NCBI GenBank assembly: GCA_963722305.1
Contig: CAVRKE010000002.1
Coordinates: 123,878 to 187,877, forward strand
Source of the DNA: Candidatus Levyibacteriota bacterium
GTDB lineage: Bacteria; Patescibacteriota; Microgenomatia; Levybacterales; UBA12049
Length of the DNA stretch: 64,000 bases
Direction: 5' to 3'
The notes under the pieces are model-generated. The model did not search any database. It was not told the DNA's origin and worked only from the letters and a program-made list of their open reading frames with translations. Below, piece after piece: positions 15,451 through 62,372 of this stretch (position 1 is its first letter; each line of letters begins with the position of its first letter). Made by a program: the position numbers and the translations under genes.

Positions 15451-15771
15451 TTATTCATTATATACTGGTTCTTCCAATTCGCCAATGTTTTTCCCGTTTA
15501 CCGGAATTTTTAGCAAAAACCCCAAAGCGTTAGCAATTGAGACTCCCACTCTTAAACCCGTGAATGACCCTGGCCCTTTATTGACTCTAATTTCGCTTAT
15601 TTCATGAATATCTATTTTTCTTTGTTTAAGCAGTTTATCTATAGTTGGCAGTGCCAGCTCGGAACGAAAAAGTGTTGAATCTTCTGTTAGCTTACTTTTT
15701 TCTCCGTTAACCTCAACCCAAACCGTTATTTTTTTATTATCGGAAGTATCTATCGTCAAGATTTTAGCCAT
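15451..15771 (-). CDS. tsaB: tRNA t6A biosynthesis protein TsaB (truncated, N-terminal domain only)
   Basis: GPGSFTGLRVGVSIA motif. 106 aa. Confidence 0.65.
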   Translation of the reverse strand: MAKILTIDTSDNKKITVWVEVNGEKSKLTEDSTLFRSELALPTIDKLLKQRKIDIHEISEIRVNKGPGSFTGLRVGVSIANALGFLLKIPVNGKNIGELEEPVYNE

Positions 15772-15773
15772 AG

Positions 15774-16355
15774 TTATATCTTAAACTTTATTGCTCCCTG
15801 ACGCAAAATGACCCAAGGGATTTTAGTACAATCAATGACCGTTGAGGAACTTTTTAACGCACATTCACCTCGAACAACATAATCAACCAATGGAACTAAC
15901 TCTTTATTTAAATCCTTGAATTCGTAGGGAGTATTCTCTCCATGAAAATTTGCCGACGGACCTAAAATCGGTACGCCAACTTTTTTGATAATCTCTAATA
16001 CTACCGCCTGGTTTGGCATTCTTAGTCCGACTGTTTCTCCGCCTCCACGAACCAGCGAGGAAACCCTTTCTTTTTTGGCTTTCAAGACGATTGTCAACGC
16101 CCCCGGCCAATAAGGAATAATCAGTTTTTGCACGACGTCTTCCGGAATTTCTTCCAGATACTCTTTTGCCATTTCAATATCCGAAACAAGCACCGGAACA
16201 GCCTGAGACTGCGGTCTTTTTCTAATTTTGAACAATCGCTGAACTGCCCTTTCGTTATCTATCCTGCAGCCTATCCCAAAAGCGGTATCGGTCGGAAAAA
16301 TTACAATTCCGCCCTGGTTTAGAATCTTGACGGCTTCTTCAATTTGATTATCCAT
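15774..16355 (-). CDS. tsaC: L-threonylcarbamoyladenylate synthase
   Basis: YrdC/Sua5 motifs PTDTAFGIG and GPSANFHG. Confidence 0.85.
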   Translation of the reverse strand: MDNQIEEAVKILNQGGIVIFPTDTAFGIGCRIDNERAVQRLFKIRKRPQSQAVPVLVSDIEMAKEYLEEIPEDVVQKLIIPYWPGALTIVLKAKKERVSSLVRGGGETVGLRMPNQAVVLEIIKKVGVPILGPSANFHGENTPYEFKDLNKELVPLVDYVVRGECALKSSSTVIDCTKIPWVILRQGAIKFKI

Positions 16356-16367
16356 AATAATTAGAAA

Positions 16368-16814
16368 TTAGAAATTTTTGATTGTTATCTTTCTCTCATT
16401 ATCTTCCATATATTCACAATGAACATCGATTCTTTTTTTAGGCAGCATTTCTCCCATTTTCTCTGCCCACTCCAGGGCAATAACATTTTCCTGGTTATTG
16501 ATAATCTGGTCCAAACCTATTCCCAATAAATCATGTTTACTTTCGGTTCGATACAAATCTACATGGTAAAAGGATTTGGGACTGGGGATTTGGGACTGGG
16601 GATTTATTACATAATGCCTAACTATGATAAAAGTGGGTGAAATAATTCTATGAACAATGCCTAAGCCTTTGGCCAACCCTTGAATAAAAGTGGTCTTACC
16701 GCTGCCTAAGTCTCCGTAAAAAGCCACAAAATCTCCACCCTTTAACTTTCGGGCAAGTTCTTGTCCTAATTTTTTGGTTTCCTCACTTGAATTGGTAATA
16801 TATTCCTCATTCAT
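16368..16814 (-). CDS. tsaE: tRNA t6A biosynthesis ATPase TsaE
   Basis: Walker A GDLGSGKTTF and HVDLYR. Confidence 0.85.
   Translation of the reverse strand: MNEEYITNSSEETKKLGQELARKLKGGDFVAFYGDLGSGKTTFIQGLAKGLGIVHRIISPTFIIVRHYVINPQSQIPSPKSFYHVDLYRTESKHDLLGIGLDQIINNQENVIALEWAEKMGEMLPKKRIDVHCEYMEDNERKITIKNF
16572..16605. repeat. 14-nt tandem repeat (ggatttgggactgg x2.4) inside tsaE
   Basis: Direct repeat visible in the sequence. Encodes NPQSQIPSPKS, which looks inserted. Confidence 0.7.
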
Positions 16815-49247: not shown

Positions 49248-49691
49248 ATGAAGATTACCTATTTTTTATTAGTAGCATTTATCATCCTCGTTGTTGTCCT
49301 TTTGAAAATCGATTATTTCAGTCCCCAACCACCAACCGCCGAAATCAATGGGCATGTATTTTCTCTATATCTTGCCAAAACGGAGTCTGAACAGGAAGTG
49401 GGACTAGCGAAATTTGATAGAATCGCCAATCATCAAGGTATGCTTTTCATTTTCCAAAAGCCCGATTACTATTCTTTTTGGATGAAAAACATGAAATTTC
49501 CAATTGATATTATTTTTATTAATAACGATAGAGTAGTCGACATTTTTCAGAATGTTCCCGTACAGAAAGACACTAATAATCTTCCGACCTACACCACCGG
49601 CGAAAAAGCCGATAAGGTACTGGAAATAAATGCCGGCTTGGCAAAGCAATACAGCATCAAGATCGGTACGGAAGTGGGGATTAATTTGTGA
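49248..49691 (+). CDS. DUF192 domain protein
   Basis: GMLFIF...FWMKNMKFPIDIIFI. Confidence 0.65.
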   Translation: MKITYFLLVAFIILVVVLLKIDYFSPQPPTAEINGHVFSLYLAKTESEQEVGLAKFDRIANHQGMLFIFQKPDYYSFWMKNMKFPIDIIFINNDRVVDIFQNVPVQKDTNNLPTYTTGEKADKVLEINAGLAKQYSIKIGTEVGINL

Positions 49692-50716
49692 CGATACTTG
49701 GCATTGAAACAAGTTGCGATGAAACCTCAGCGGCAGTAATCACAGCCGACAAAAATGATCAGCAAGTCAAGCTTTTGTCAAATATTATTGCTACCTCCTT
49801 AGCTCTTCACGCCAAAACCGGTGGTATAATTCCCGAAGTTGCCGCCAGAGAGCAGGTCAAATTTATAATTCCGGTGATTGAAAAATCGCTTGAGGTTTTA
49901 AAAAATCCGCAAAGGGAAATTGATGCCATTGCCGTCACTGTCGGACCTGGGCTAATCGGCTCGCTCTTGGTTGGAGTCGAAACTGCCAAAACCATGGCTT
50001 ATGTTTGGCATAAACCGCTTATCCCCGTCAATCATCTGTCTGGACACATCTACGCAAATTTCGTTAGCGAAATTCATAAATCTAAGGAGATTGAGTTCCC
50101 CGCCATCGCGCTGATCGTTTCCGGCGGACATACCGATTTGGTGTTAATGAAAAGTCATAATAATATCCAATGGCTGGGCGGAACCAGAGACGATGCGGCC
50201 GGCGAGGCTTTTGATAAGACAGGTCGACTTTTAAATTTGCCGTATCCGGCCGGACCGCAAATTGAACAGTTGGCAAAAGGCATAGAAAAAGACGTTTACC
50301 ATTTTCCCAGGCCGATGATCGGTACCGATGATTTTGATTTTTCCTTTTCCGGATTAAAGACCGCCATCTTAAGGGAAGTGCAAAAACTACAAACTCCGGA
50401 TTATGACGAAATTAGAAATATCAGTTTTGCTCTCCAGGAGGCGATTTTTGCGGTTCTCACTAAAAAAACTCTTCGGGCGGCAGAAAAGTTCAAAGCCAAA
50501 TCAATTCTCTTAGGTGGTGGTGTTGCTGCCAATCAGACGTTAAGAAAACGTTTTGAATTAGAAATTAGAAATTTGAAATTAGAAATTCCGCTTTTCATAC
50601 CCGAGAAGCGGTTGTGTACCGACAACGCTGCCATGATCGCCGCTGCTGCATTCTTTAACAACGAAGAAGCCGACTGGAAAAAAATTTCCGCCAACCCCGA
50701 ACTTTATTTTGATTAA
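49688..50716 (+). CDS. tsaD: tRNA N6-adenosine threonylcarbamoyltransferase
   Basis: Kae1/TsaD motifs (GIETSCDET, SGGV). Confidence 0.9.
   Translation: MTILGIETSCDETSAAVITADKNDQQVKLLSNIIATSLALHAKTGGIIPEVAAREQVKFIIPVIEKSLEVLKNPQREIDAIAVTVGPGLIGSLLVGVETAKTMAYVWHKPLIPVNHLSGHIYANFVSEIHKSKEIEFPAIALIVSGGHTDLVLMKSHNNIQWLGGTRDDAAGEAFDKTGRLLNLPYPAGPQIEQLAKGIEKDVYHFPRPMIGTDDFDFSFSGLKTAILREVQKLQTPDYDEIRNISFALQEAIFAVLTKKTLRAAEKFKAKSILLGGGVAANQTLRKRFELEIRNLKLEIPLFIPEKRLCTDNAAMIAAAAFFNNEEADWKKISANPELYFD
50692..50713. repeat. Direct repeat DR1 (CAACCCCGAACTTTATTT) at the 3' end of tsaD
   Basis: An identical 18-mer recurs at 51648-51665. Both copies encode NPELYFD-stop, with synonymous differences after the shared core. 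Confidence 0.8.
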
Positions 50717-50776
50717 GCGCCAACTCCAAGGACTAAAAACACTAGAATCGATAGAGTGGTATAATTTATTTCAACT

Positions 50777-51646
50777 ATGCCAATCCCTGTCAAAAAATTA
50801 AAGAATGGTTTTGAAATACCAGTTTATGGACTTGGCACTTGGCAAATGGGAGGAAGAGAAAGTCGTGATTTAAACAATGACGACCAAGCTGACATTCGAG
50901 CAATTAAAAATGCCATTGATTTAGGAGTTACTCATATCGATACTGCAGAAAGTTATGCCAACGGCTATACGGAAATACTGGTTGGAAAAGCAATTAAAAA
51001 TTATCAAAGAGAAAAACTGTTTCTTGTTTCAAAAGTTAAAGCTATCCATTTAAAATATGACGACCTGATTACCTCTTGTAAGGCAAGCCTCGAAAGACTG
51101 CAAACTGCTTATCTTGATCTGTATCTTATTCATCTCCCAAACCCGGATATCCCCATCAAAGAGACAATGAAGGCAATGGATACACTTTTTGGGCAAGGGC
51201 TGATTAAAAATATTGGAGTCAGTAATTTTACAACTAGTGAAATTGAAGAAGCACAATCGTCTACAAATAATAAAATCGTTGCTTGCCAATTACACCTTAA
51301 CCTTAAATTTCGTGAACCGGAAAGAAAAGGCATACTACAATACTGTCAAGAACACGATATGATACTTATCGCGTGGCGGCCTTTACAAAAAGGGGTTCTC
51401 TTGGAAGACAAAGAAAATATGGTTGTCGAAATGGCGGAAAAATACCATAAAACACCTGCGCAAATTGCAATTAATTGGTTAATTTCTCAAGATAATGTTG
51501 TGACTCTTTCTAAAACAAACGACATTGAACATCTTAAGGAAAACCTGGGAGCTATTGGCTGGGAGATGGACAAAGAAGATATTGAAAAATTAAGAAATAA
51601 CTATCCCAATCAAGAAGCTGTTTCAGATGCTGTACCTCTCCGCTAA
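50777..51646 (+). CDS. Aldo/keto reductase
   Basis: AKR signature. Bracketed by the DR1/DR2 direct repeats. Confidence 0.85.
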   Translation: MPIPVKKLKNGFEIPVYGLGTWQMGGRESRDLNNDDQADIRAIKNAIDLGVTHIDTAESYANGYTEILVGKAIKNYQREKLFLVSKVKAIHLKYDDLITSCKASLERLQTAYLDLYLIHLPNPDIPIKETMKAMDTLFGQGLIKNIGVSNFTTSEIEEAQSSTNNKIVACQLHLNLKFREPERKGILQYCQEHDMILIAWRPLQKGVLLEDKENMVVEMAEKYHKTPAQIAINWLISQDNVVTLSKTNDIEHLKENLGAIGWEMDKEDIEKLRNNYPNQEAVSDAVPLR

Positions 51647-51672
51647 TCAACCCCGAACTTTATTTCGACTAG
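51647..51672. repeat. Direct repeat DR2 (a displaced copy of the tsaD 3' end) downstream of the AKR gene
   Basis: tCAACCCCGAACTTTATTTcgacTAG. In-frame it reads NPELYFD followed by TAG. Confidence 0.8.
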
Positions 51673-51697
51673 AGAATAATTCTGCTACTATTATTGT

Positions 51698-52861
51698 GTG
51701 AAGGAAATTAGAAAAATTCACCTCATGCAGTTTATGGCCGGTTTGGCGAATATGGCCTCCGTAACCTTCACGCTATATTTTTTATCCCATGGGTTAACAC
51801 AGCTTCAAATCGGCGAGCTTTTCGGTTTCTTTATGCTTTGCATGTCACTTTTCAATATCCCCACAGGCACAATTGCCGACATTTTTGGACATAAAATATC
51901 TGTCGCAATTGGAGTATCTTTGCAAGCTTTATGCTTTTTAACATTTTTCCTTTATCCAAATTTTTACGGTTTTTTACTGGGCATGTTTTTTGATGGACTG
52001 GGTTGGGCATTCCAATCAGGAGCAATCTCTTCTTTAATTTACGAACTGCTGAAAAAAGAGGATCTTCACCAGGATTTTCAAAAAGTTTTTGGCAGAACGA
52101 ACGTGTATTTCTTAGTAGGGACTATTATCGGAAGCCCTTTTGGGTCTATAATTTACAAATTTTATCCGGGGTTACCATATTTGCTGTCTTTTATTTTTCT
52201 TTTTACCGCAGCTTTTTTCATCTTCATAATCAAATGGGAATTTAAGAAAAAACCTTACTCAATAAAATATTATTATCAGACTCTTTTTCATGGCGTGCGT
52301 TTAACAATTAAAAACAGAATTCTAATGGCTACCGTAATTATTGGAATCGCCCTGACGGTTAACAGAATGGTATTTAATCAAAATATCGCCCAGCCCTATC
52401 AACTTGGTATCGGAGTAGATGTTGCATATTTTGGACTTATTGCCGCTGCCATTTCTTTGATTGAAATACCCATTTATTTTTACGCGCATAAAATTACTAA
52501 AAAAATAGGGGAAAGTTTTTCTCTGCTTTTAATCGTCTTGATACCGAGCGCCTGCGCTATTCTTTTAAGCTTTATCAACACCTTGGTTGCAATACCAATA
52601 ATTCTAATTTTCTTTACGGGGCATGCATTTCGTGACCCTCTTTTCTCGCATATTTCCCAAAAAGAAGCCGACCATGATAAAAGAAGCACAATGGCATCAA
52701 CAGTAGGTTTCTTTATAAGCGTAATTGCGGCTTTGATGTTGCCGTTCTGGGGAAAAGGAATTGACCTGTTTGGACTCCACAATAGTCTTTTTCTCTTGGG
52801 AAGTTTCTCATTTATTGTCGGCGCCTTAGGTCTTATTTTATTTGAAACAAAAAAGACGTAA
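51698..52861 (+). CDS. MFS transporter
   Basis: 12 TM helices. Confidence 0.8.
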   Translation: MKEIRKIHLMQFMAGLANMASVTFTLYFLSHGLTQLQIGELFGFFMLCMSLFNIPTGTIADIFGHKISVAIGVSLQALCFLTFFLYPNFYGFLLGMFFDGLGWAFQSGAISSLIYELLKKEDLHQDFQKVFGRTNVYFLVGTIIGSPFGSIIYKFYPGLPYLLSFIFLFTAAFFIFIIKWEFKKKPYSIKYYYQTLFHGVRLTIKNRILMATVIIGIALTVNRMVFNQNIAQPYQLGIGVDVAYFGLIAAAISLIEIPIYFYAHKITKKIGESFSLLLIVLIPSACAILLSFINTLVAIPIILIFFTGHAFRDPLFSHISQKEADHDKRSTMASTVGFFISVIAALMLPFWGKGIDLFGLHNSLFLLGSFSFIVGALGLILFETKKT

Positions 52862-52890
52862 ATTTCTCCCAATAATGCTAGAATAGATGT

Positions 52891-53877
52891 ATGCAAACGG
52901 AACTGCTCGTTATTGTTGGAATTTTGATAGTAGGTTTCGCCGTAATACTCTACTTTCTGAACAAAAAACTCTCTGAACGTAAACCCGACCAGGCACTTTT
53001 GGAATGGCTAAAGACCATGCAGTCAACAATTAGTAATTCTTCTACTCAGACTGTCCGGACACTGCAGGAGAACACCAAACAACTGAATGAAAGACTTGAT
53101 ACTGCTGCCCGAGTCATCAGGGATGTCGAAAAAGAAGTCGGGCAGATGTCGGAAATCGGCCGCAATATGCGCGAACTGCAGGACTTTTTAAAAAGTCCGA
53201 AACTGCGGGGCAATATCGGTGAACAGGTCCTCAAAGATTTAATTGCCCAAATGTTTCCCAAAAGCAGTTTTCATTTACAGTACGAATTTAAATCCGGAGA
53301 AAAAGTTGACGCCGCAATTAAAACCGATGCCGGAATTTTGCCGATTGATTCCAAATTCCCGATGGAAAATTACCAAAAAATGGTTAAAGCAAACGAAAAA
53401 GCGGAAAAGGAAACGTTTGAAAAAGAATTTGTCCGGGATGTTAAAAAACACATTGATGCAATTTCCAAAAAATACATTTTGCCCTCCGAAGGTACCATGG
53501 ATTTTGCCCTGATGTACATTCCCAGCGAATCGGTTTATTACGAAGTTGTCAATGAAATCGAGCTCTTAGATTATGCCAGACGTGCCAGAGTTTACATGGT
53601 CTCTCCGTCAACTTTATACGCCCATCTACAAACCATTCTGCTGTCTTTTGAAGGAAAAAGAATTGAAAGTAAGTCCAGAGAGCTTTTCGCACTTTTGCGT
53701 AGCATGCAAATTGATTATGAGAAAATTGAAGAAAATATGGCCACACTTGGTAAACATATTAACAACGCCTATTCGCAATTTGGCAATGTCTTATCGGGTT
53801 TTTCCAGTCTTGGTCAAAAATTAAATTCCTCTAAAAATTTAGAATCTGAACATAAAAAGGAAGAAATACCCGCCTAA
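52891..53877 (+). CDS. rmuC: DNA recombination protein RmuC
   Basis: N-terminal TM, coiled coil, and RmuC nuclease-like C-terminus. Confidence 0.8.
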   Translation: MQTELLVIVGILIVGFAVILYFLNKKLSERKPDQALLEWLKTMQSTISNSSTQTVRTLQENTKQLNERLDTAARVIRDVEKEVGQMSEIGRNMRELQDFLKSPKLRGNIGEQVLKDLIAQMFPKSSFHLQYEFKSGEKVDAAIKTDAGILPIDSKFPMENYQKMVKANEKAEKETFEKEFVRDVKKHIDAISKKYILPSEGTMDFALMYIPSESVYYEVVNEIELLDYARRARVYMVSPSTLYAHLQTILLSFEGKRIESKSRELFALLRSMQIDYEKIEENMATLGKHINNAYSQFGNVLSGFSSLGQKLNSSKNLESEHKKEEIPA

Positions 53878-53956
53878 ACTTACCGTTAACCTTTTCAATT
53901 CTATTCGAATACGGTTTACGGAGCGTTTTAGCGGCGGGCGGGGAAGGAGGTGAAAA

Positions 53957-54379
53957 ATGAAGAAACAATCTCGTTTAATCTTTGGAGTTGTGGTATTGGT
54001 CGTAATTATTGTTGCCGGTTATTTAATTATCAGTACCGGTATCGGACAACAACACAAAACAGCGCAAACTCTCATTAATCAACAGCAAATTATAAATTCC
54101 CATGAGCAAAGGGCAACCGTTACTCTTACCGGTTCAGGCTTCAATCCTGCAACGTTAACCGTAAAACCGGGAACAAGAATTATTTGGTTAAATAAAAGCG
54201 GAACCAATGGAAGTGTAAACTCCGACAATCATCCGACAAATCTTTTATATCCTTTCTTAAACTTAGGACAATTTAATAATGGTTCAAGCGTCAGCGTGGT
54301 ATTTAAAAAAGCCGGAAAATATACTTACCATAATGAAGTAAATCCGGAGCAAAAAGGCACGGTTGTGGTTGAAGAGTAG
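53957..54379 (+). CDS. Cupredoxin-like secreted protein without the canonical copper ligands
   Basis: GGAGGTGA SD. Beta-sandwich pattern TLTVKPGTRIIWLN...YHNEVNPEQKGTVVV. Confidence 0.45.
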   Translation: MKKQSRLIFGVVVLVVIIVAGYLIISTGIGQQHKTAQTLINQQQIINSHEQRATVTLTGSGFNPATLTVKPGTRIIWLNKSGTNGSVNSDNHPTNLLYPFLNLGQFNNGSSVSVVFKKAGKYTYHNEVNPEQKGTVVVEE

Positions 54380-54413
54380 GTAACTTTTTTACGGCCTGTG
54401 ATACAATACCTGA

Positions 54414-57383
54414 ATGAGAGTAGGCACAGAAGCAGGTATTAAGGCAGGCATGAAAGTAAGCACGAGCAGAATACGAGTGAGGGAAAAGCGCCTAAAGCTT
54501 GACCAGAGCCAGCTTAAAGCAATCAGGCATAATCAAGGGCCACTGTTAATTATTGCCGGCGCAGGGACAGGCAAAACAACAGTTATTACCCAAAGAATAA
54601 AATATTTGATTTTTAAAAAAGAGATACTCCCATCGCAAATTCTGGCTTTAACTTTTACCGAAAAAGCCGCCTTTGAAATGCAGGAGAGAGTGGATGTTTT
54701 ATTGCCGTATGGATATGTTAATTTATGGATTAATACTTTCCATTCTTTTTGCGACCGGATTTTGAGGGATGAGGCCCACAATATCGGTCTTGACCCTAAT
54801 TATAAACTGATTTCCGAGTCGGAATCCGTTTTATTTTTACGCCAGCATCTTTTTGATTTGGGATTAAAAATCTTCAAGCCGCTTGGCAATCCAACTAAAT
54901 TTTTAGATGCGCTACTTATTCATTTTTCAAGACTGAAAGATGAGGACATATCGCCCACGGAGTATCTCCGATGGGCTCAAAATCAAAAATCAAAAATCAA
55001 AAATCAAAAGTTAGATGTTGGTAGTCAGAACTTAGAAGTTGAACAATACTTGGAACTTGCCAACGCTTACGAAATCTATGAGGAGTTGAAAGTTAAAAAT
55101 GGCGTGATGGATTTTAGCGATCTTATTTCCAATACGCTTTTGCTATTTAGAACCAGAAAAAATATCCTCCATAAATACCAAGACCAATTTAAGTATATTC
55201 TGGTTGACGAATTCCAGGATACAAATTTTGCCCAGAACGAACTGGCAATCCTACTGGCCGGCCGAAAGAATCAGAACATCAATGTGGTTGCCGACGATGA
55301 CCAATCAATTTATCGCTTTCGGGGAGCAGCAGTTTCCAATGTTTTGCAGTTTAAGAAAAATTTTCCCATTGCCCAAATTATCACTCTGACAAAAAATTAC
55401 CGTTCCACCCAAACCATTTTGGATGCCGCTTATAAACTTATCCAGAATAACAACCCGAACAGACTTGAAATAGTTGAACATATCAATAAAAAATTGCACA
55501 GTAAGTTCAAATCAAAAGGCAGGCCAGTTGAGTTAATCCATGAGCAAAGGGCCGATGATGAGTCGGACACGATTGCCAAAACCATTAAGACGCTTTCCAA
55601 AAAATACGATTACAAAGATATTGCCATTCTCGTTAGGGCCAACAACCACTCACAACTGATTACCGCTGCTTTACAAAGGCACAGAATTCCTTACCAGTTT
55701 TTAGGACCGGGCTATCTTTTCCAACAGGAAGAAATAAAAGACCTGATAGCCTACCTGACATTTTTGACCGATCTTTCCAATACGGTGGCGCTTTTTCGAG
55801 TGCTCTCGATGGATGTTTTCGAAATTCCGTATGTCGAGTTGAACTTTCTTTTGAATTTTGCCAAAAAACAAAATCTAAGCCTTTTTGAAACGCTAGAAAA
55901 TCTTAATCAACCATTCTTAACTAAACCCACCCAAAAAAAGTTAGAGGATTTTCGCAAGATGACCATCAGGCACTTGGAGAAAAGTAAGCAAGAGCAAGCC
56001 GGACAAATTCTTTACTATTTTTTAATTGATTCCAAACTTATCGAAACACTCGGTGAAGCGACTTCGCTGAAAGAAGAACGGAAAATCCAGAATATCGCCA
56101 AATTTTTCGACCGGATTAAGAATTTCGAAACGGAAAGAGAGGATAGCAATATTTTTGTTTTGGTCGAATGGCTAACTTTAATGATGCAGTTGGGAGATAG
56201 TCCAACCGCCGCGGACATTGACATTAAAGACCAGAATGCGGTAAATATTTTAACCATCCATTCAAGCAAGGGTCTCGAGTTTAAAGTTGTTTTCTTAGTC
56301 AATCTTGTTTCCGACCGCTTTCCTTCCCGGGAACGGGCTGAGAAAATTCCGCTACCGACAGCATTGATTAAAGAAAAATTGGTAAAAAATGTTGACTTCC
56401 ACTTGCAGGAAGAAAGACGGCTTTTTTATGTCGGAATGACCAGGGCCAAGGAACTCTTATATTTTACCGGTGCTGATTATTACGGCGGTGGAAAACGAAT
56501 GAAAAAACTTTCGCCCTTCGTCTTTGAAGCAATACCGCAGCTTCAAGCTAAAAAACGTGAGTTAAAATTGCTGAACAGTTCCCTTGATAACTCCTTATCT
56601 GCCTATCAGGAAAAAGAAACGAAAGAAGAAAAGGCGCCGCCGTTTAAAGTCACTTACATCAACTATTCAAACCTGCAGATGTTTGATATCTGTCCGTTGC
56701 ACTACAAAGCGAAAGTGATCTTAAATATTCCGACACCAAAATCATTTGTCCAAAGTTTCGGAATTTCTCTGCATAACACTCTTTATGATTTTTATAAAGA
56801 AGTGCGTGAGGGGTATACTCCGACATTACCCGAATTTAAAAAAATGTTTGATAAAGAGTGGATAAGCGAGGGATACGATAATAAAAAACATGAAAAAGAG
56901 CGTTACGAGCAAGGGCTAAAAATTCTAAAAACTTTTTATAAAAGTGAATGCCATCCGCCGGTCAAACCGTTAGGCATTGAGCTGAATTTTTCTTTTCTAC
57001 TAAAAAACGGCGTCAAAGTTTCCGGAAAAATCGACCGGGTTGATAAAAAGGGCAAAGGTATCGAAATCATTGATTATAAAACCGGCGAGGATAATCCAAA
57101 AGCCCAAGAAGCCCACGAGCTGCAATTGGCCATGTACGCTTTGGCCGCCACCCGTGTCAAAGACGAGATCTTAAACCGCAAACCCGAAGACATTACTTTA
57201 ACCCTTTATTTCCTGGAAGGCGGAACGAAAAAATCGATGACTTTTACAAAAGAGGACCTCGACCGGTTCGAAGATGAACTGTTGGAGAAAATTAAAGAAA
57301 TTGAAAACAGCGACTTTAAATGCAGCGGCAATGTTTTGTGCCTCAACTGTGAATATCGAATGCTTTGCCATTCGCAAAGATGA
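54414..57383 (+). CDS. UvrD/PcrA-type helicase fused to a C-terminal PD-(D/E)XK Cas4-like nuclease (AddA/AddB-like)
   Basis: Walker A GAGTGKTT and UvrD motifs. C-terminal four-Cys cluster (C...CLNCEYRMLC). An extended -10 TGaTACAAT sits 6 nt from the ATG. Confidence 0.8.
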   Translation: MRVGTEAGIKAGMKVSTSRIRVREKRLKLDQSQLKAIRHNQGPLLIIAGAGTGKTTVITQRIKYLIFKKEILPSQILALTFTEKAAFEMQERVDVLLPYGYVNLWINTFHSFCDRILRDEAHNIGLDPNYKLISESESVLFLRQHLFDLGLKIFKPLGNPTKFLDALLIHFSRLKDEDISPTEYLRWAQNQKSKIKNQKLDVGSQNLEVEQYLELANAYEIYEELKVKNGVMDFSDLISNTLLLFRTRKNILHKYQDQFKYILVDEFQDTNFAQNELAILLAGRKNQNINVVADDDQSIYRFRGAAVSNVLQFKKNFPIAQIITLTKNYRSTQTILDAAYKLIQNNNPNRLEIVEHINKKLHSKFKSKGRPVELIHEQRADDESDTIAKTIKTLSKKYDYKDIAILVRANNHSQLITAALQRHRIPYQFLGPGYLFQQEEIKDLIAYLTFLTDLSNTVALFRVLSMDVFEIPYVELNFLLNFAKKQNLSLFETLENLNQPFLTKPTQKKLEDFRKMTIRHLEKSKQEQAGQILYYFLIDSKLIETLGEATSLKEERKIQNIAKFFDRIKNFETEREDSNIFVLVEWLTLMMQLGDSPTAADIDIKDQNAVNILTIHSSKGLEFKVVFLVNLVSDRFPSRERAEKIPLPTALIKEKLVKNVDFHLQEERRLFYVGMTRAKELLYFTGADYYGGGKRMKKLSPFVFEAIPQLQAKKRELKLLNSSLDNSLSAYQEKETKEEKAPPFKVTYINYSNLQMFDICPLHYKAKVILNIPTPKSFVQSFGISLHNTLYDFYKEVREGYTPTLPEFKKMFDKEWISEGYDNKKHEKERYEQGLKILKTFYKSECHPPVKPLGIELNFSFLLKNGVKVSGKIDRVDKKGKGIEIIDYKTGEDNPKAQEAHELQLAMYALAATRVKDEILNRKPEDITLTLYFLEGGTKKSMTFTKEDLDRFEDELLEKIKEIENSDFKCSGNVLCLNCEYRMLCHSQR

Positions 57384-60773: not shown

Positions 60774-61274
60774 CTATTTAGCCAAAACCTGGTCAATGGC
60801 TTCTTTTACCGTATCCCAATCAAATCCCTTTGAAGCGAGGTATCGGCCGAGTTTTTCGTAGACTTTTCGTTTATCGTCTTTGTCATGAATCGTTCTGAGT
60901 TTTTTTTCTGCCAACTTACGCGCGCTTTCCGTGTCAAGGTTTTTGGTCATTGATAATTGGTCATTGGTCATTACGAAATCGATGATTTCGTCCGTAATTC
61001 CCTTCTGTTTTAGTTCGTATTTAATCACTCTCCACGCTTTTGGTTTTAATAAAGTCCGCTGCTTCACCCACATCCGCACAAATTCCTCATCGTTAATGAA
61101 CTTATCCCTTTTGAGACTCGCGATTATTCGTTCTATTATTTCATTCTTAATTCTTAATTCTGAATTCTGAATTCTGAATTTTTTAGTGAGGTAGTCCCGC
61201 ATCTCTTTTTCACTGCGCGGACGGAATGACAAAAAACGGATAGAGGCTTTGTAGAATTTTTCAAAATCGTCCAT
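60774..61274 (-). CDS. recX: Regulatory protein RecX
   Basis: Three-helix-repeat architecture, immediately downstream of recA. Confidence 0.7.
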   Translation of the reverse strand: MDDFEKFYKASIRFLSFRPRSEKEMRDYLTKKFRIQNSELRIKNEIIERIIASLKRDKFINDEEFVRMWVKQRTLLKPKAWRVIKYELKQKGITDEIIDFVMTNDQLSMTKNLDTESARKLAEKKLRTIHDKDDKRKVYEKLGRYLASKGFDWDTVKEAIDQVLAK

Positions 61275-61283
61275 CTTGCGATA

Positions 61284-62372
61284 TTACTCTTTGCTTTCCG
61301 CTTCGACGCCGACTTCAACCCTGGCCGGAGAGGTTTTGCTTTTGGTCATTATTTCTTCAACGATTTTTTTGGCAGTATCCGGTTTTTCTTTCAAAAAGAG
61401 CGCGGCCGCCTGTTTACCCTGGCCAAGCATAAGTTCGCCAAACCTAAAGAAGGCTCCGGATTTTTCAATAATGCCCATATCCACCCCGACATCCATGATT
61501 CCGCCCTCCCGCGAAATGCCGGTATCGGCCATCACGTCAAACTCGGCAATCCGAAAAGGCGCCGACACTTTATTTTTAACAATCTTGGCTCTGTGCCTAC
61601 TACCAACCACCACGTCTCCTTCTTTTAAGGTCTCTATTTTGCGAACGTCAATTCTTATCGATGAATAAAATTTCAGCGCCAAGCCGCCGGTGGTGGTTTC
61701 GGGGTTACCAAACATCACACCGATTTTTTGCCGCAGTTGATTGGTAAAAATCACCACGGTTTTTGATTTGGAAATAACCGCCGTTAATTTTCGGAGAGCC
61801 TGCGACATTAGCCTCGCCTGCAGCCCCATCATCGCATCTCCCATTTCGCCTTCGATTTCCGCCCTTGGCACCAAAGCGGCCACCGAATCGATAACCAGCA
61901 CATCAATTCCGCCGCTTCTGATTAAACTCTCAGCAATTTCTAAAGCCTGTTCGCCGGTATCCGGCTGGGAAATTAATAATTCATCTAACTTAACACCAAG
62001 ACGCTGCGCCCATAACGGGTCAAGCGCATGTTCGGCATCAATAAAGGCGGCTACGCCATTATGCTTTTGCGCTTGCGCAATAATTGATAAACAAACTGTC
62101 GTTTTTCCCGACGCCTCCGGTCCGTAAATTTCAATGATTCTCCCTCTTGGCACTCCACCTACTCCGAGTGCTAAATCTAAGGGAAGACAGCCTGTGGAGA
62201 TAACCGAGACGTCAAATTTCTGGCCGGTGTCGCCAAAGCGCATAATACTTCCGCGTCCGTACTGTTTTTCGATTTGTTCCATTGCCAGTTTGACTGCTTC
62301 CATTTTCTGTGAACCTTCCGAAGGACCGTTTGAAGTTTTTTCTGTCTTTTCCGAATTACTATGTCTTGCCAT
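61284..62372 (-). CDS. recA: Recombinase RecA
   Basis: Walker [10 protein letters not shown] and L1/L2 loops. The TTGATA-N17-TATTAT promoter ends 6 nt from the ATG. Confidence 0.97.

Follow-up and report, generated by a model that had tools for sequence, protein, structure and literature searches.

What left a second copy of the end of tsaD behind a neighbouring gene in a Candidatus Levyibacteriota genome? The locus lies in a stretch of 64 kb from contig CAVRKE010000002.1 (the window; all coordinates given without another locus name are positions within it), in which tsaD is followed by a gene for an aldo/keto reductase (AKR), the repeated tsaD end, a gene for an MFS transporter, and rmuC. 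In the window, the 18-mer CAACCCCGAACTTTATTT has two exact copies, both on the forward strand, at 50692-50709 at the end of tsaD and at 51648-51665 directly after the AKR gene, just as the first-pass annotation of this DNA had described. Read in register, the repeat is longer than this and comprises 24 nt: both copies begin with AAC CCC GAA CTT TAT and encode NPELYFD followed by a stop codon, and their 3 differences are each synonymous or exchange one stop codon for another (TTT GAT TAA in the first copy, AACCCCGAACTTTATTTTGATTAA; TTC GAC TAG in the second, AACCCCGAACTTTATTTCGACTAG). The 2 copies start 956 nt apart and enclose a unique insert of approximately 931 nt (50717-51647), and the second copy begins 2 nt past the AKR stop codon. 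The encoded C-terminus, ANPELYFD, is kept across the TsaD homologues of the clade. Comparison with relatives shows the second copy to be the original tsaD terminus, displaced from its gene, and we refer to it as the scar.

With up to 2 mismatches allowed, the 18-mer has no further match in the window, and shuffled sequences gave a mean of 0.01 matches. These counts rule out a chance repeat or a common low-complexity word, a possibility that the first-pass annotation had itself raised. An assembly artefact is unlikely as well, because a separate Logan assembly (sample ERR11594402) has the same gene order and the scar recurs in the JGI, ENA, and Logan assemblies of relatives. A short extra microhomology upstream of the scar, TCCGC, is specific to the window (the other lineages end in His, not Arg) and was judged to be due to chance.

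Empty and occupied sites in related lineages

The relatives are metagenome assemblies throughout, the nearest of them approximately 15% to 20% different in nucleotide sequence. Scanning contigs with the single TsaD protein gave no matches, and alignment-based scans returned mostly distant relatives with at most 67% identity; the informative close relatives, designated here by L and a number, were obtained only via exact-protein look-ups. Several of them have an empty site. In L169-172, whose TsaD is 79% identical to that of the window, only a 25-nt spacer separates tsaD from the MFS gene, and the L169 spacer (agaataattctgctactattattgt) is identical at 25 of 25 positions to the one between scar and MFS gene in the window. 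In L173, L177, and L179, rmuC comes directly after tsaD, and the spacer between these genes in L179 is identical (17/17) to that between scar and rmuC in L174. Given the empty sites and the identity of the L169 spacer, the second copy occupies the position that the tsaD terminus has in an unoccupied site. The empty sites prove an insertion and, on these alignments, identify the second copy as the original tsaD terminus in displaced form. They thereby bear out 2 claims of the first-pass annotation, namely that the second copy with its synonymous differences is a displaced terminus and that the AKR segment was inserted with a complete tsaD 3' end kept. The MFS gene is present in L165 and L169 and absent in L173, L174, L177, and L179.

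Other relatives have the site occupied. L163, L165, and L174 carry the AKR gene at the position that it has in the window, and their scar likewise lies 2 nt past the AKR stop codon. Amino acid identity of the AKR to that of the window is 83% in L163/164, 80% in L174/175, and 73% in L165-167, and the sequences after the AKR stop are ctAATCCCGAACTTTATTTCGATTAA, ctAATCCCGAACTTTATTTTGATTAA, and atATCCCCGAACTTTATTTTGATTAA, respectively. What follows the scar varies: the MFS gene in the window and L165, rmuC in L174, and a reverse-strand kinase-like gene in L163. The two copies within one genome differ by just 1 nt in L163 and in L174, and among the AKR lineages the scar and its downstream spacer are conserved, whereas the spacer between tsaD and AKR is not. 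AKR homologues also occur in other contexts, in L176 (75%) and L168 (70%), both without a scar. The AKR gene and scar form a module common to at least 4 lineages; the insertion is old, and by this comparison it is neither private to the window nor recent. The first-pass annotation had suggested looking in relatives for the presence or absence of the AKR gene, and had counted relatives with the AKR gene ancestrally at this position, with both repeats, as evidence against its reading. L163/164, L165-167, and L174/175 do hold AKR and scar at this very place and so answer in part to that description.

Occupied and empty sites are also found side by side: one sample (Ga0182027 / ERZ27248448) contains the arrangement tsaD-AKR-MFS-rmuC (L165/L166) together with the empty arrangement tsaD-rmuC (L177/L178 and L179), in different lineages, so that donors and recipients co-occur. 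A separate observation concerns the tsaD gene of L174 (approximately 290-1257) and L175, which has an in-frame stop codon (AAR*QVKF, where other lineages have AAREQVKF), such that gene callers give a 189-aa product only. The stop is present in 2 contigs, one from JGI and one from Logan, and could mean that the gene is a pseudogene, that recoding occurs, or that the 2 contigs share an error.

The tsaD-rmuC gap is a hotspot where Levybacteria lineages repeatedly swap small accessory genes. The gene order VanW, cytidylyltransferase (CTP), DUF192, TsaD, RmuC, cupredoxin-like protein, and UvrD/PD-(D/E)XK is kept in 162 related loci wherever these genes are on the contig. Non-redundant loci with tsaD followed by rmuC number 70; the genes are adjacent in 29 of them (12 to 150 nt apart), and the remaining 41 have 0.15 to 4.5 kb of cargo in between. 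This cargo includes transporters, hydrolases, a Trp-repressor-like protein, a P-loop kinase, a beta-lactamase-like protein, NUDIX and HD proteins, and, in distant lineages, topA/SpoU. Among the close relatives, the gap has 6 different states. No recombinase family is found among the 25 listed of the 28 cargo families.

The sequence surrounding the window's cargo is a mosaic. L173 is the closest relative over the genes on either side (VanW 86%, CTP 84%, DUF192 79%, UvrD 86%), and it has neither the AKR nor the MFS gene. TsaD identity, by contrast, is flat at 75% to 80% for all relatives regardless of how related their flanks are, with the flanking genes ranging from 41% to 92%. Sliding nucleotide identity to L173 is 0.80 to 0.87 across DUF192 and up to the middle of tsaD; from there it drops to 0.63 to 0.73, and L169, L165, or L174 becomes the best match. 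Maximum chi-squared analysis of the window against L173/L169 puts a left breakpoint inside tsaD (max-chi2 25.7, permutation p <= 0.001), with 70/107 informative sites for L173 on its left and 29/97 on its right. The 5' part of tsaD thus resembles L173, and the 3' part (approximately 500 nt) is of different ancestry. A right breakpoint falls within the first 30 to 95 nt of rmuC (p <= 0.002 for L173/L169, p <= 0.008 for L173/L174), and from there on L173 is again the best match, through UvrD. Judged by these identities, a block of approximately 2.7 kb, made up of the 3' part of tsaD, the AKR gene, the scar, the MFS gene, and the 5' tip of rmuC, differs in history from its flanks, and it bears what looks like the signature of homologous-recombination exchange in 2 conserved flanking genes. 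The first-pass annotation had regarded a cassette of about 935 bp as the foreign unit; the unit of foreign ancestry in the window would instead be the approximately 2.7-kb block, with crossovers inside tsaD and rmuC.

The AKR and MFS genes have a GC content approximately 1 standard deviation below the mean of the window genes, and this comparison gives no compositional signature of foreign DNA for either. Within the recombinant 3' part of tsaD, at 50540-50590, short tandem-like direct repeats (TTTTGAATTAGAAATT / TTTGAAATTAGAAATT; ATTAGAAATTAGAAA) code for ELEIRNLKLEI. This segment is patchy among TsaD homologues: some lineages have it, and others have unrelated residues in its place.

Variable scars and the origin of the junction

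A six-frame motif scan combined with a nucleotide scan downstream of tsaD recovered at least 5 further independent tsaD-end scars, with other cargo or none and with lengths from 20 to approximately 100 nt. In L014, the scar is a perfect 20-mer and the insert is one 0.69-kb gene whose stop codon lies 3 nt before it. L019 has a Trp-repressor-like gene and a scar of at least 48 aligned nt with an internal stop (TGG to TAG), L146 a 1.19-kb insert and a 72-nt scar, and L086 a 2-kb insert and a scar of approximately 100 nt in which TGG is changed to TGA. Two inserts contain no gene: 22 nt in L012, with a scar of approximately 24 nt, and 42 nt in L089, with a scar of at least 36 nt. In several scars, the identical core shared by the 2 copies is no longer than 5 to 7 nt. 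A nucleotide-scan match in L108 falls within the gene of an unrelated synthetase and was put down to chance.

Comparing the live tsaD ends with the scars, 32 codon differences are synonymous and 10 are non-synonymous; all 8 in L089 are synonymous, and L146 has TCT replaced by AGC, both of which encode serine. This synonymous excess suggests that the copies are functional alleles from different lineages, which would have evolved separately as working tsaD ends before they came to lie next to each other. Such a history disfavours a simple target-site duplication, and it bears on an origin in situ, in which the AKR gene would have entered via a staggered break or via template switching during replication, with approximately 24 nt copied on both sides and subsequent drift between the copies. 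Duplication in situ would account for an insert bracketed directly by the repeat, for the perfect 20-nt repeat of L014, and for the single difference between the copies in L163 and L174. However, it predicts that approximately 3/8 of the differences are non-synonymous, which is not what the counts above give, and it leaves the mosaic ancestry of the tsaD 3' end unexplained. There is also neither a transposase in the window nor a pair of inverted repeats at the cassette ends, and to our knowledge a duplication varying between 20 and 100 nt fits no known transposase. We therefore give this explanation very little credence. A transposon or insertion sequence was rejected for the lack of a transposase and of terminal inverted repeats and for a 24-nt duplication with synonymous differences.

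Two further observations were made at tsaD ends of relatives. A short motif after the tsaD stop codon occurs in several Levybacteria, with live and with scar copies (CCTTCGAAGCCTCGGCGAAGG, GCCGAAGCTTTAGCGAAGG, CCCTTTGAAGCTTTGG; L012 3463-3484, L089 7054-7095, L019 6084-6120 and 6843-6880); it looks hairpin-like and is possibly a terminator, or else a small repeat element, and nothing similar is present in the window. Moreover, the TsaD proteins of L086, L088, L023, L027, L040, and L024 extend 1 to 5 codons beyond ...LYFD (...LYFDTAQY* in L086), which may be further traces of junctions.

The first-pass annotation attributed the repeat to an att-like, site-specific mechanism. Put in full, the 24-nt tsaD terminus would act like an attB site, and a recombinase-less AKR cassette would have been inserted in Campbell fashion by a recombinase encoded elsewhere, its own site rebuilding the tsaD end. 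Several features fit: the direct repeats duplicate the tsaD 3' end and tsaD is rebuilt, the same junction between AKR and repeat is found before 2 different empty-site contexts, and both in the window clade and in L014 the join lies 2 to 3 nt past the stop codon of the cargo. In addition, synonymous sites of the tsaD end show unusual conservation, the last approximately 14 codons having the highest synonymous-codon identity of the gene (0.74 to 0.82, versus 0.54 gene-wide, in 8 close lineages), and there is a formal likeness to SGI1-family islands in the last 18 bp of trmE (PMC5397566).

On the other side stand both the absence of machinery and the shape of the scars. Integrase, transposase, and resolvase families are missing from the 65 window ORFs of at least 70 aa, in agreement with the first-pass annotation that the window holds no recombinase (this search covered the 64-kb window), and the listed cargo families are equally devoid of them. 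The window contains no member of the IntI/tyrosine recombinase family, and no attI platform was seen in it. DNA folding of both strands of both copies gave no attC-like hairpin (z -0.18 to +0.92), which led us to reject an integron-like attC site. Two pattern scans of 2.9 million viral contigs found no exact match to the tsaD-end patterns and thus lend a phage or attP origin no support. The scar lengths vary widely between events, 2 of the inserts are gene-less, several pairs of copies have no core of the kind that a fixed site would leave, and multi-scar arrays were not seen. The variable lengths and the gene-less inserts of 22 and 42 nt disfavour both a fixed att site and a gene-cassette mechanism. 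A literature search for tsaD as an attachment or insertion site found nothing relevant. The att-like mechanism is thus not supported: the defining recombinase and the fixed att core of an SGI1-type system were tested for and not found, and we consider it improbable that such a system made this junction.

A variant of this idea would make the terminal 24 to 45 nt (approximately) of tsaD a dedicated gene-capture site, at which a recombinase acting in trans swaps single-gene cassettes in an integron-like manner. It would explain why the AKR gene sits at the same nucleotide before 2 empty-site contexts, why the join is close to the cargo stop, and why the tsaD end is the part of the gene most conserved at synonymous sites; we hold it to be a long shot. 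The synonymous conservation has other potential causes, as repeated crossovers at the tsaD end could homogenise its synonymous sites, and a DNA-level function of the tsaD end is a possible alternative.

The explanation that we favour, with moderate confidence, is that cargo is exchanged through homologous recombination within the genes on either side, in which the scar stems from an imprecise, illegitimate join on the right-hand side, i.e., homology-facilitated illegitimate recombination (HFIR). Recombination between related lineages would have followed DNA uptake. A segment bringing the AKR gene along with a promoter and a new 3' end for tsaD would have been joined just upstream of the last 24 nt of the resident tsaD, with one crossover being homologous and inside tsaD and the other join being imprecise, illegitimate, and falling a few codons short of the stop codon of the resident tsaD. 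As an intact tsaD is required, selection would retain only products with a complete incoming tsaD 3' end, in which the resident end is left as a non-coding scar. Later on, the module of AKR gene and scar may have spread, or its downstream neighbours may have been replaced, via the homology of tsaD and the tsaD-end sequence. With tsaD to its left and, to its right, 24 nt that copy the conserved tsaD end, the module has homology that could guide both its transfer to other lineages and its precise loss, and this would account for scar variation being confined to third positions. With respect to the DNA-uptake route, competence and homologous-recombination genes are reported to be common in Patescibacteria, which reportedly exchange genes mainly among themselves (PMC12455944).

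A number of points weigh against cargo exchange with an illegitimate join. That the join is 2 to 3 nt past the cargo stop in 2 independent cases, the window clade and L014, is tidier than expected of random illegitimate joining. The same insertion point before 2 empty-site contexts is explained equally well by a site-specific mechanism. The scar of the AKR lineages is conserved beyond what would be expected of a neutral 24-mer, varying at third positions only, and this over-conservation would require either homology-guided refreshment or selection, for example through overlap with a promoter, both of them conjectural. As for the mosaic, the recombinant could be either the window or L173, so that it can be read in either direction, and the comparison as a whole depends on metagenome assemblies, even the closest of which are as distant as stated above.

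Genes and promoters of the locus

The coordinates of the locus are collected in Table 1. The AKR matches positions 3-287 of the 291 of the PF00248 profile and is thus a full-length family member. The TAA and TGCTAGAAT in the spacer between the MFS gene and rmuC are homologous to the tsaD stop plus rmuC promoter sequence of empty sites.

Table 1. Features of the tsaD-rmuC locus, in window coordinates
Feature	Position	Strand	Remarks
tsaD, 342 aa, functional and mosaic	49688-50716	+	Pfam TsaD, E = 2e-87
Left recombination breakpoint in tsaD (predicted)	50215-50221
Repeat copy 1, live tsaD terminus	50693-50716	+	NPELYFD*
Spacer travelling with the AKR gene	50717-50776	+	Extended -10-like TGGTATAAT at 50757-50765
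AKR cargo gene, 289 aa, full length	50777-51646	+	Pfam Aldo_ket_red PF00248, E = 1.5e-60
Repeat copy 2, displaced original tsaD terminus (scar)	51649-51672	+	NPELYFD-stop
Scar-to-MFS spacer, 25 nt	51673-51697	+	Putative MFS promoter TGCTACTAT at 51683-51691
MFS transporter gene, second cargo gene of the island	51698-52861	+	Pfam MFS_1, E = 1e-24
MFS-rmuC spacer	52862-52890	+	Keeps TAA and TGCTAGAAT (52876-52884); spacer alignment
Right recombination breakpoint in rmuC (predicted)	after 52,919-52,983
rmuC, conserved right flank	52891-53877	+	Pfam RmuC, E = 1e-54

Homologous to the spacer before the AKR gene of the window is a putative promoter and leader, TGaTATAATTTATTTCAgyT-ATG, which lies upstream of the AKR gene in L163, L165, and L174 and also in the unrelated context of L176. 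An extended -10-like sequence, TGnTAnnAT, stands 6 to 12 nt before the start codon of each hotspot gene (TGGTATAAT for AKR, TGCTACTAT for MFS, TGCTAGAAT for rmuC), and its placement suggests leaderless or very short-leader mRNAs and cargo with self-contained promoters.

The scar might persist as functional DNA if the last bases of tsaD overlapped with a downstream promoter, an idea that would explain the retention of the scar but not its origin and that is compatible with cargo exchange and an illegitimate join. In a consensus scan, TCGACT of the scar pairs with a TATTAT just ahead of the MFS start, at a spacing of 18 nt; in the empty site, TTGATT stands at the position of TCGACT. The AKR lineages share the scar and its spacer but not the tsaD-AKR spacer. 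However, the promoter-like hit (51665-51694) is not above chance, as 9 such hits were found versus 6.8 expected. The local promoters also look to be of the extended -10 type, which would need no -35 element, and L163 keeps its scar next to the 3' end of a reverse-strand gene, where it has no promoter role. Persistence of the scar as functional DNA is rather unlikely in our view.

The hotspot adjoins rmuC and the UvrD-PD-(D/E)XK helicase-nuclease gene (52891-57383), and RecX and RecA are encoded 7 to 8 kb further on (60774-62372, with RecA at 61284-62372). Other t6A-pathway genes lie approximately 33 kb from tsaD on the reverse strand (15451-16814), comprising Sua5/TsaC (15774-16355), TsaE (16368-16814), and a 106-aa TsaD-family ORF that matches only profile positions 30-85 and is probably TsaB-like.

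Counterparts in other bacteria and significance

The tsaD locus appears to behave like 2 known phenomena. One is the minimal mobile element (MME) of Neisseria (Saunders & Snyder 2002, cited in PMC1797815; PMC3787668). MMEs are alternative cassettes of 1 to 3 genes at one syntenic position between conserved genes, without mobility genes and exchanged by homologous recombination in the flanks. The tsaD-rmuC gap resembles them in its alternative cargo (41 of 70 loci) and in its breakpoints inside both tsaD and rmuC. It differs from them in its host, which belongs to an uncultured phylum of the Candidate Phyla Radiation (CPR) that may be naturally transformable, going by reports of competence genes, and in that an essential-gene scar marks at least 6 independent events; duplicated gene-end scars are not described for MMEs. 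HFIR, as defined in PMC3240628, combines a homologous crossover, here in tsaD, with a non-homologous join, adds DNA beside the anchor, and has a recipient junction whose position varies. The difference is that at this locus it is deduced from comparative genomics only.

Resemblance to SGI1-family islands (SGI1, Salmonella genomic island 1), which are inserted into the final 18 bp of trmE (PMC5397566), is formal only. In both cases an insert lies between direct repeats of approximately 18 bp that copy the 3' end of a conserved gene for tRNA modification. SGI1, however, is approximately 42 kb in size and has its own integrase and a fixed att site, whereas the insert at tsaD is a single gene whose boundary differs between events, and no recombinase was found for it. 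With integron cassettes, the insert of approximately 0.9 kb shares its single-gene make-up, a repeat right after the stop codon, and a fixed platform for insertion, but the present locus has no attC-like hairpin, IntI, or attI, the cargo has an apparent promoter of its own, and the repeat copies the end of a coding gene. Staphylococcal cassette chromosome (SCC) elements, including SCCmec and pseudo-SCC, sit at the 3' end of rlmH/orfX, where cassettes are bounded by direct repeats of the end of an RNA-modification gene and some are recombinase-less. They rely on Ccr serine recombinases as well as a fixed 15-bp site, and the tsaD locus shows neither.

The duplicated tsaD end is a real and well-explained feature that reveals no new kind of mobile element; it represents a known type of genome plasticity, with a fresh example in a poorly studied phylum. 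CPR bacteria (Patescibacteria) have tiny genomes and cannot be grown alone, and most of what is known about how their accessory genes are gained and lost comes from bulk statistics. This locus offers a view at nucleotide resolution, with a hotspot between an essential gene and rmuC, empty and occupied sites, and mosaic breakpoints on both flanks, and its series of scars records imprecise recombination between co-occurring lineages. The duplicated tsaD end is also a practical marker for finding such events in metagenomes, and the locus is a testable site for recombination in CPR populations.

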